From Nitrososphaeria archaeon (lineage in GTDB: Archaea > Thermoproteota > Nitrososphaeria > Geothermarchaeales > JDFR-13), in contig JALWXN010000004.1 in assembly GCA_027078545.1 (NCBI GenBank), forward strand, positions 192,001-256,000: a stretch of DNA of 64,000 bases. The letters are read 5' to 3'. The notes beneath the pieces are model-generated. The model was given only the letters and a program-made list of their open reading frames with translations, had not been told where the DNA came from and did no database searches. The position numbers and the translations under genes were made by a program. Of this stretch, positions 34,287 to 56,168 are shown in pieces. Each line of letters begins with the position of its first letter. Position 1 is the first letter of the stretch.

Positions 34287-34380
34287 GGGGCCGTGGTGTA
34301 GCTTGGCTAGAACCGAGTTTGGTGGCCAGCATGCGGGCCTCGGGAGCCCGTGGTCGCCGGTTCAAATCCGGCCGGCCCCA
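34287..34380 (+). tRNA. tRNA-Pro (CGG) with 19-nt D-arm intron (34311-34329, position 22/23)
   Basis: Removing the intron gives a sequence identical to tRNA-Pro(TGG) at 38434 except at the wobble base. Confidence 0.93.
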
Positions 34381-34395
34381 CCTGAAGATGCCTGG

Positions 34396-35691: not shown

Positions 35692-35824
35692 GGGGCCGTG
35701 GCCCAGCCAGGAAGGGCGGCCGACAATATCGTTGGCTGAGGCTCCAGATCCCGGTATTAGGACCCTCTGGGGATGACTGGTGGATACCGGTCGGTCGTGG
35801 GTTCAAATCCCACCGGCCCCACCA
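35692..35824 (+). tRNA. tRNA-Trp (CCA) with two introns (35723-35740 at 30/31; 35748-35785 at 37/38)
   Basis: Splicing restores GCCGG-CT-CCA-GA-CCGGT; the first intron forms a full BHB (CGGC/GCTG central helix). Confidence 0.9.
35748..35785 (+). ncRNA. Putative intron-encoded minimal box C'/D' guide (predicted Cm39 of pre-tRNA-Trp)
   Basis: Guide CCGGTATT plus AGGA-CCC-TCT-GGG-GATGAC kink-turn; N+5 lands on C39. Confidence 0.6.
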
Positions 35825-56048: not shown

Positions 56049-56168
56049 GCCGCCGTAGCTCAAAGGTGGAGCGCCCGGCTCATAACTAGGATGTTATGAG
56101 CTATGACCCTATGGGGGATGATGTGGGAGACCGGGAGGTCGCGGGTTCGAATCCCGCCGGCGGCACCA
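56049..56168 (+). tRNA. Elongator tRNA-Met (CAT) with 45-nt intron (56085-56129, 37/38)
   Basis: GCCGCCG acceptor stem; BHB central helix CTCA/TGGG. Confidence 0.93.
56085..56129 (+). ncRNA. Putative intron-encoded box C'/D' guide (predicted Cm34 of tRNA-Met)
   Basis: GTTATGAGC is antisense to the anticodon loop and is followed by ATGA-CCCT-AT-GGGG-GATGATG. Confidence 0.65.

Follow-up and report, generated by a model that had tools for sequence, protein, structure and literature searches.

The question raised by this locus is whether a 38-nt intron in a tRNA-Trp gene can guide the 2′-O-methylation of C39 in the precursor of which it is itself a part. Intron-guided formation of Cm34 and Um39/Cm39 in tRNA-Trp is established in Haloferax and Pyrococcus (PMC7994747, PMC6313347, PMC7714728). 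The earlier note on this DNA had proposed that the intron is a stripped-down guide with a single motif, which acts on the unspliced pre-tRNA of a TACK archaeon. Judging from the sequence and from its relatives, we put the probability that the intron actually guides Cm39 of tRNA-Trp at roughly 0.65. Coordinates refer to the window, i.e. the whole 64,000-nt stretch that was analysed, unless another contig position is given.

The tRNA-Trp(CCA) gene (35692-35824, + strand) ends with an encoded CCA (35822-35824). Its exons comprise 35692-35722, 35741-35747 and 35786-35821. Once the two introns are excised, the acceptor, D, T and anticodon stems all pair, with the anticodon stem GCCGG/CCGGU and the loop CUCCAGA. 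The numbering of tRNA positions was anchored on the T-arm and the acceptor stem. ARAGORN at default settings did not call the gene. In Rfam only the ends of the gene align as tRNA-like, and a scan of the 38-nt intron at E<=10 gave no match to a snoRNA or sRNA family.

Intron 1 (35723-35740, + strand, 18 nt) lies between positions 30 and 31 and forms a hairpin in the minimum free energy (MFE) fold. Its splice motif is a canonical hBHBh′ with the bulges CG-A and AG-G, the inner helix CAAU/GUUG and the central helix CGGC/GCUG, in which the pairs are C17-G38, G18-U37, G19-C36 and C20-G35 (here and in other base pairs the last two digits of 357nn are given). It is kept, with compensating changes, in the related genes L003-L006. 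Intron 2 (35748-35785, + strand, 38 nt) occupies the canonical 37/38 site, as read from the sequence and from relatives. The splice motif of intron 2 has 3-nt bulges, and its central helix contains one mismatch or adopts an alternative register; heteromeric splicing endonucleases of this group accept relaxed motifs (PMC4090602). The boundaries of both introns are ambiguous by one base, a repeated A in the case of the 38-nt intron and a repeated G in the case of the 18-nt intron. DNA of the locus is present in hydrothermal-vent metagenomes, and in the contigs from there strain variants occur only in the two hairpin loops: T35766C in intron 2 and C35730T, the sole variant in intron 1.

Two observations were made in passing. 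In two congeners, L004 (G003) and L005 (G001), the tRNA-Trp gene apparently has a third intron of ~15 nt in the D-arm around position 22/23, on top of the 30/31 and 37/38 introns. In the window, another intron-containing tRNA (34287-34383, + strand) lies directly 3′ of tRNA-Gly(GCC). ARAGORN gives it an odd two-base anticodon, and Rfam matches only its ends.

The order of elements in intron 2 is AUC-CCGGUAUU-AGGA-CCC UCU GGG-G A U-GA-CU-GGUGGAU. The antisense element CCGGUAUU (35751-35758, + strand) stands directly 5′ of the D′-like box. Read as CCGGTATT, it is antiparallel to GATACCGG (35783-35790) and forms with it eight base pairs, seven Watson-Crick pairs and the G-U pair U58-G83. The target strand GAU-ACCGG (35783-35790, + strand) consists of three intron bases, A38 and C39-G42. 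G35754, the fifth base 5′ of AGGA, stands opposite C35787, which is C39. Thus both the complementarity to the 3′ intron-exon junction and the pairing of G35754 with C39, as the earlier note had described them, can be read directly, and the register recurs in the relatives. The run of 8 bp is the best target anywhere in the pre-tRNA-Trp of this genome. The predicted energy of the duplex is -11.7 kcal/mol at 37 C and -5.35 at 70 C.

The D′-like box AGGA (35759-35762, + strand), whose GA would contribute to tandem sheared pairs, takes the place of CUGA in most relatives of the class. It is followed by the C-stem hairpin CCC-UCU-GGG (35763-35771, + strand), in which CCC (35763-65) pairs with GGG (35769-71) and UCU is the loop; CC...GG between D′ and GAUGA is kept throughout family f1. 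Next comes the three-base bulge G-A-U, then GA (35772-35779, + strand), where relatives have AUGAUGA or AUGAUGU. In the predicted kink-turn the sheared pairs G75-A62 and A76-G61 are extended by C77-G60 and U78-A59. The kink-turn with its AGGA, CCC/GGG stem, GAU bulge and GA had been recognized before and aligns with the CUGA...AUGAUGU of the relatives. The previous reading of the second strand as a GAU bulge plus GAC needs a correction: GAUGA is the beginning of a C′ box. Because A73-U74-G75-A76 is the R-U-G-A start of C′ and AGGA is D′, this is an ordinary C′/D′ motif with a hairpin spacer. The C′ box AUGAcug (35773-35779) is degenerate in its second half. The 3′ end of the intron (35780-35785, + strand) belongs to the splice motif. 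GUGG (35780-83) pairs with tRNA residues C35-C32 to make the central helix with its one mismatch, and A84 and U85 of the intron together with A38 form the 3′ bulge. In the introns of relatives this helix is formed by a terminal GGAG and two further bases.

The other half of a box C/D guide is missing from intron 2. There is no terminal kink-turn of box C (RUGAUGA) and box D (CUGA) in the intron: a RUGA-type box does not precede the guide, and 3′ of C′ no nnGA box is accompanied by a guide. The usual distance of ~12 nt between box C and D′ has no counterpart, as there is no box C and only 11 intron bases precede D′. Over the 5′ exon-intron junction we found no usable guide for C34. Only CUGG (35777-80) complements positions 34-37, and the UCUGGAGC element of the relatives is absent. 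Consequently, the sequence contains one kink-turn of C′/D′ type with neither a terminal C/D pair nor a position-34 guide, as had been suggested. Two candidates for the missing parts were rejected. The CUGA of intron 1 is part of the splice motif of that intron, and relatives without intron 1 keep the kink-turn. UGGA (35781-84) as box D would leave no space for a guide, and its bases make up the splice-motif helix.

ViennaRNA prefers folds that compete with the guide duplex, for example one pairing 38-44 with GACUGGU. UCUGGGG (35766-72), which is complementary to the anticodon loop, dominates the MFE fold at 37 C; it is not conserved in L004-L006, and we therefore treated this pairing as incidental. 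The CCGGU/ACUGG helix of the 70 C MFE fold was rejected for the same lack of conservation. None of the competing helices is conserved, and protein bound to the kink-turn would block them. These folds do bear on another reading, according to which the complementarity serves splicing or folding: an alternative helix would hold 39-43 or join the ends of the intron for the endonuclease, and the resemblance to a kink-turn would be incidental. The two ends of the intron, AUC...GAU, are complementary, folding predicts several alternative helices, and the relaxed splice motif with its central-helix mismatch would suit such a role. Three observations make this reading quite improbable. The guide, once paired, abolishes the anticodon stem on which the splice motif depends; relatives carry canonical CUGA and AUGAUGU boxes; and in 23 genera a constant 4 nt separates the C39-pairing base from the GA of D′, whereas the distance to the splice sites varies.

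The comparison with relatives used a BLAST search of the gene against 41 related genomes and a search of 401 genomes of the same class with the intron-neutral pattern CTCCAG...GGTTCRARTCC. Together they recovered tRNA-Trp genes from about 45 genera. The same mini-intron is present in MAGs that bear the labels Candidatus Geothermarchaeota, Nitrososphaeria or Thermoprotei archaeon, and the deposition of relatives under the first two names agrees with a TACK host. In 71 tRNA-Trp introns with a kink-turn, the kink-turn was located by its own motif, and then the base opposite the fifth guide nucleotide was read. For L006 and some others the automatic choice of the kink-turn did not succeed; about 25 sequences were corrected manually, and the L006 duplex was read by hand.

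Among these 71 introns of the class, at least 7 bp in the exact C39 register were found in 23 of 41 genera and in 14 of 18 families. Half of the unique guide/target cases (31/62) reach at least 7 bp, compared with 0.14 expected for shuffled guides, which give such a duplex in the C39 register in about 0.2% of sequences. In most lineages no site anywhere in the pre-tRNA is a better target than position 39, and the duplexes there comprise 7-11 bp. Of g2-g9, a fraction of 0.73 is paired in register, as against 0.29-0.43 when the guide is shifted by 1-4. As the related genes are not independent, these counts and those of covariation are descriptive, but the pattern spans many families.

Covariation of guide and target, which the earlier note had named as a check, was found at both intron and exon positions of the duplex. 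The g7:41 pair occurs as GC, AU, CG and GU and tracks the stem types CCGGU, CCCGU and CCUGU. For g2:i-2 and g3:i-1 the combinations UA, CG, AU and GC are seen. These two pairs involve intron bases only, so the constraint of the anticodon stem cannot explain their covariation. The same data bear on the view that a short, G+C-rich intron resembles a guide by chance. The motifs are indeed short, and a loose genome-wide search for GA-hairpin-NRUGA gave 130 matches versus 86 in shuffled sequence. Conservation, register and covariation across families, and the clear homology to L066, a complete box C/D intron, make a chance resemblance extremely unlikely, and the comparison with relatives excludes it.

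Most tRNA-Trp introns in the 401 genomes of the class read guide-CUGA-spacer-AUGAUGU, and in many there is also UCUGGAGC, which is complementary to the anticodon loop. The L066 intron is a complete canonical box C/D RNA: GUGAUGA, 12 nt, CUGA, AAAG, UGAUGA, 12 nt, CUGA, with C39 at D′+5 and C34 at D+5. The earlier note had called the longer dual-guide tRNA-Trp introns euryarchaeal. They are known from there, but the L066 intron places them in this class as well. Within the window's own family the introns form a graded series. Those of L007 and L008 (58-64 nt) combine kink-turn and position-39 guide with the anticodon complement; those of L009, L014, L061 and L062 (64-65 nt) have an extra 5′ hairpin. 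In the introns of L001-L006 the kink-turn and the position-39 guide are the only guide elements, and in the window's genus and in L003 (38-42 nt) nothing but guide, kink-turn and splice helix is left. Since fuller versions exist in the same class, up to L066 with the same relation of D′ to C39, the intron of the window is a reduced homologue. It descends from the box C/D guide found in archaeal pre-tRNA-Trp introns and retains only the internal C′/D′ module; box C, box D and the guide for C34 have been lost in the window's genus. One MAG of the comparison, G013, has two differing tRNA-Trp genes (contigs C56 and C107; L062 and L003), one carrying a 42-nt mini-intron like that of the window's genus, the other the 64-nt type of its own genus. 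The presence of both types suggests a mixed bin.

A reduced guide may be an inactive one. It is conceivable that the kink-turn and the complementarity are relics of a full box C/D intron that no longer direct methylation; in a variant of this reading the kink-turn binds only L7Ae and, for example, stabilises or folds the intron or the pre-tRNA. Neither a terminal C/D pair nor a C34 guide is left, and the boxes are degenerate. Many lineages lack the position-39 guide, and because 18 of 41 genera lost the complementarity, it is dispensable. Against this background stands the group with reduced introns, L001-L006. There the duplex keeps 7-9 bp in exact register although the sequences differ (UAUU/GAUA, UGC/GCA, or extension to 43-44), which argues for continued selection after the reduction. 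The strain-level variants spare everything but the hairpin loops, and the design recurs, with its box+5 register, in four other introns of this genome. Taken together, we consider a relic unlikely and an active guide the better reading.

These four further introns with one kink-turn and an upstream guide were found by a genome scan in the genes of tRNA-Met, tRNA-Lys(UUU), tRNA-Lys(CUU) and tRNA-Cys. The loose GA-hairpin-NRUGA motif, unspecific alone, became useful only after filtering for tRNA context. A second box pair was not found in any of the four introns. In the window, the elongator tRNA-Met(CAU) (56049-56168, + strand) has a 45-nt intron (56085-56129) with the guide GUUAUGAGC (56093-56101), one U, the D′-like AUGA, CCC-UAUG-GGG, the G-A-U bulge and GAUGU. 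G56098, the fifth base 5′ of D′, pairs with the wobble base C34 (56081). The other three genes lie outside the window. The tRNA-Lys(UUU) gene (G000:C4 about 292,080-292,240, + strand) and the tRNA-Lys(CUU) gene (G000:C4 about 115,530-115,700, - strand) have introns of ~50 nt at 37/38 with the order guide-ACGA-CCC...GGGG-GAUGA. Their guides differ in step with the anticodons: D′+5 is U34 in a duplex of 9 bp for the former and C34 in a duplex of 11 bp for the latter, and both duplexes cross the 5′ exon-intron junction. The tRNA-Cys(GCA) gene (G000:C4:492715-492823, - strand) has a 33-nt intron that contains GAGA-CCAAGCCAGG-GAUGA. Its 'guide', made up of the anticodon bases GCAG and the intron bases GUGUA, pairs over 8 bp with AC-ACCUGC, and D′+5 is C39. 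This intron could be a second candidate guide for Cm39; a slipped copy of the anticodon stem is an equally good explanation. Its 'guide' repeats the 5′ strand of that stem, a point in favour of the splicing or folding explanation discussed above.

The genome also encodes conventional sRNAs with two kink-turns (11 matches to a strict pattern versus 2 in shuffled sequence). Double-guide box C/D candidates include G000:C4:1076147-1076210, about 707,600-707,700, about 371,140-371,260 and others. Several conventional sRNAs have a D′-GCCC...GGGC-C′ hairpin like that of intron 2. With such a G+C hairpin as the spacer between D′ and C′, both motifs of these candidates would be true kink-turns. A wider proposal is that natural box C/D RNPs with a single kink-turn ('half-mers') function as guides in their own right in this lineage. 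Five or more tRNA introns (Trp and Cys directed at C39; Met, Lys-UUU and Lys-CUU directed at position 34) would direct methylation of the pre-tRNAs that contain them with no second box pair, in cis or through pairs of RNAs bridged by Nop5, and would impose the order methylate-then-splice, in tRNA-Trp maybe gated by the 30/31 intron. We put this forward tentatively, at somewhat less than even odds.

For tRNA-Trp the following mechanism can be envisaged. L7Ae would bind the kink-turn of intron 2, and Nop5-fibrillarin would then dock on the L7Ae-bound kink-turn. The guide would pair with the intron/3′-exon junction of the unspliced pre-tRNA-Trp, and fibrillarin would 2′-O-methylate C39, opposite the fifth guide nucleotide 5′ of D′. 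One kink-turn may suffice either in cis or in a Nop5-bridged pair of RNAs. Three of the eight base pairs use intron bases, therefore only the unspliced pre-tRNA offers the full target, as in the known system and as the earlier note had it. Since the guide takes up 39-42, neither the anticodon stem nor the splice motif of intron 2 can form alongside it, and methylation would precede splicing. Bases 25-28 would be held by the splice motif of intron 1, so that 39-43 stay free as long as intron 1 is present, which may favour methylation. The host has genes for the proteins, with Pfam matches over cut-off for fibrillarin (252 bits), Nop (Nop5; 217 bits) and L7Ae (102 bits). The L7Ae gene lies at G000:C4:324700-324978, and those of Nop5 and fibrillarin lie at C4:52038-53479.

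Several features count against activity. There is no second kink-turn, the boxes AGGA and AUGAcug are degenerate, and the duplex has just 8 bp including a G-U pair in an organism of hydrothermal vents. Box C/D guides are taught as particles with two kink-turns whose symmetry is needed for efficient methylation, and C′/D′ halves alone reportedly performed poorly in vitro. The titles of Tran 2003 and Rashid 2003, in the references of PMC3608112, state that efficient methylation needs symmetric assembly of C/D and C′/D′, a requirement that favours the relic. So does the finding that the tRNA-Trp intron of Haloferax can be deleted without loss of viability (PMC7714728). In crystal structures half-mer C/D RNAs assemble with L7Ae, Nop5 and fibrillarin (PMC6239191, PMC3608112), and a half RNP is therefore physically plausible.

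The intron shares features with four known or proposed systems. The C′/D′ motif of the intron guide that Singh described in 2004 is said to guide position 39. The guide in the Haloferax volcanii pre-tRNA-Trp intron and Pyrococcus sR50 (Clouet d'Orval 2001 and Singh 2004, as cited in PMC7994747, PMC6313347 and PMC7714728) has the same host gene, the 37/38 site, a D′ guide across the 3′ junction and position 39 at D′+5; the same protein machinery is encoded here, and full-length homologues occur in this class (L066). In contrast to that guide of about 65-105 nt, the present intron has 38 nt, no box C, box D or C34 guide, AGGA as D′, a degenerate second half of C′, and a hairpin as the C′/D′ spacer, which makes a true kink-turn rather than a K-loop. 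The gene described here also has a second intron, at 30/31. The tRNA-Trp intron of Sulfolobus solfataricus (65 nt, a stable circle; Danan 2012, PMC3326292) is reported to have 7-bp complementarities to 34 and 39 and no consensus C/D boxes. It too is a TACK-side tRNA-Trp intron complementary to position 39, but neither a kink-turn nor the box+5 register was described for it. The intron of the window is shorter and has the position-39 complementarity only. For the 66-nt tRNA-Met intron RNA of Nanoarchaeum equitans a guide with one box pair was proposed (Randau 2012, PMC3491384). Like the present intron it is a tRNA intron with a single box pair and a proposed role in methylation. The tRNA, the phylum and the target (34) differ, and here the module is the C′/D′ half of a former double guide and directed at 39. 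Synthetic half-mer box C/D RNAs (Ye 2009 and Xue 2010, as cited in PMC6239191 and PMC3608112) also combine one kink-turn with one guide and assemble with L7Ae, Nop5 and fibrillarin. They are laboratory constructs and usually represent the terminal C/D half, whereas the intron is natural, of C′/D′ type and embedded in its own substrate.

Three features appear to be new: the class-wide module linking C′/D′ to position 39 in Nitrososphaeria-related archaea, the reduction series ending in a natural half guide of 38 nt, and the four sibling half guides alongside it, including the second candidate for position 39 in tRNA-Cys. The lineage seems to have whittled its tRNA-Trp intron guide down to one kink-turn and an 8-nt guide, with the pairing kept under selection. 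If active, such introns would be the minimal natural guide RNP, and intron-guided tRNA methylation would extend from Euryarchaeota to the Nitrososphaeria/Geothermarchaeota side of TACK. Activity would also predict new modification sites, Cm39 in tRNA-Trp and tRNA-Cys, and it would provide a concrete functional reason to retain short tRNA introns and to modify the tRNA before splicing.
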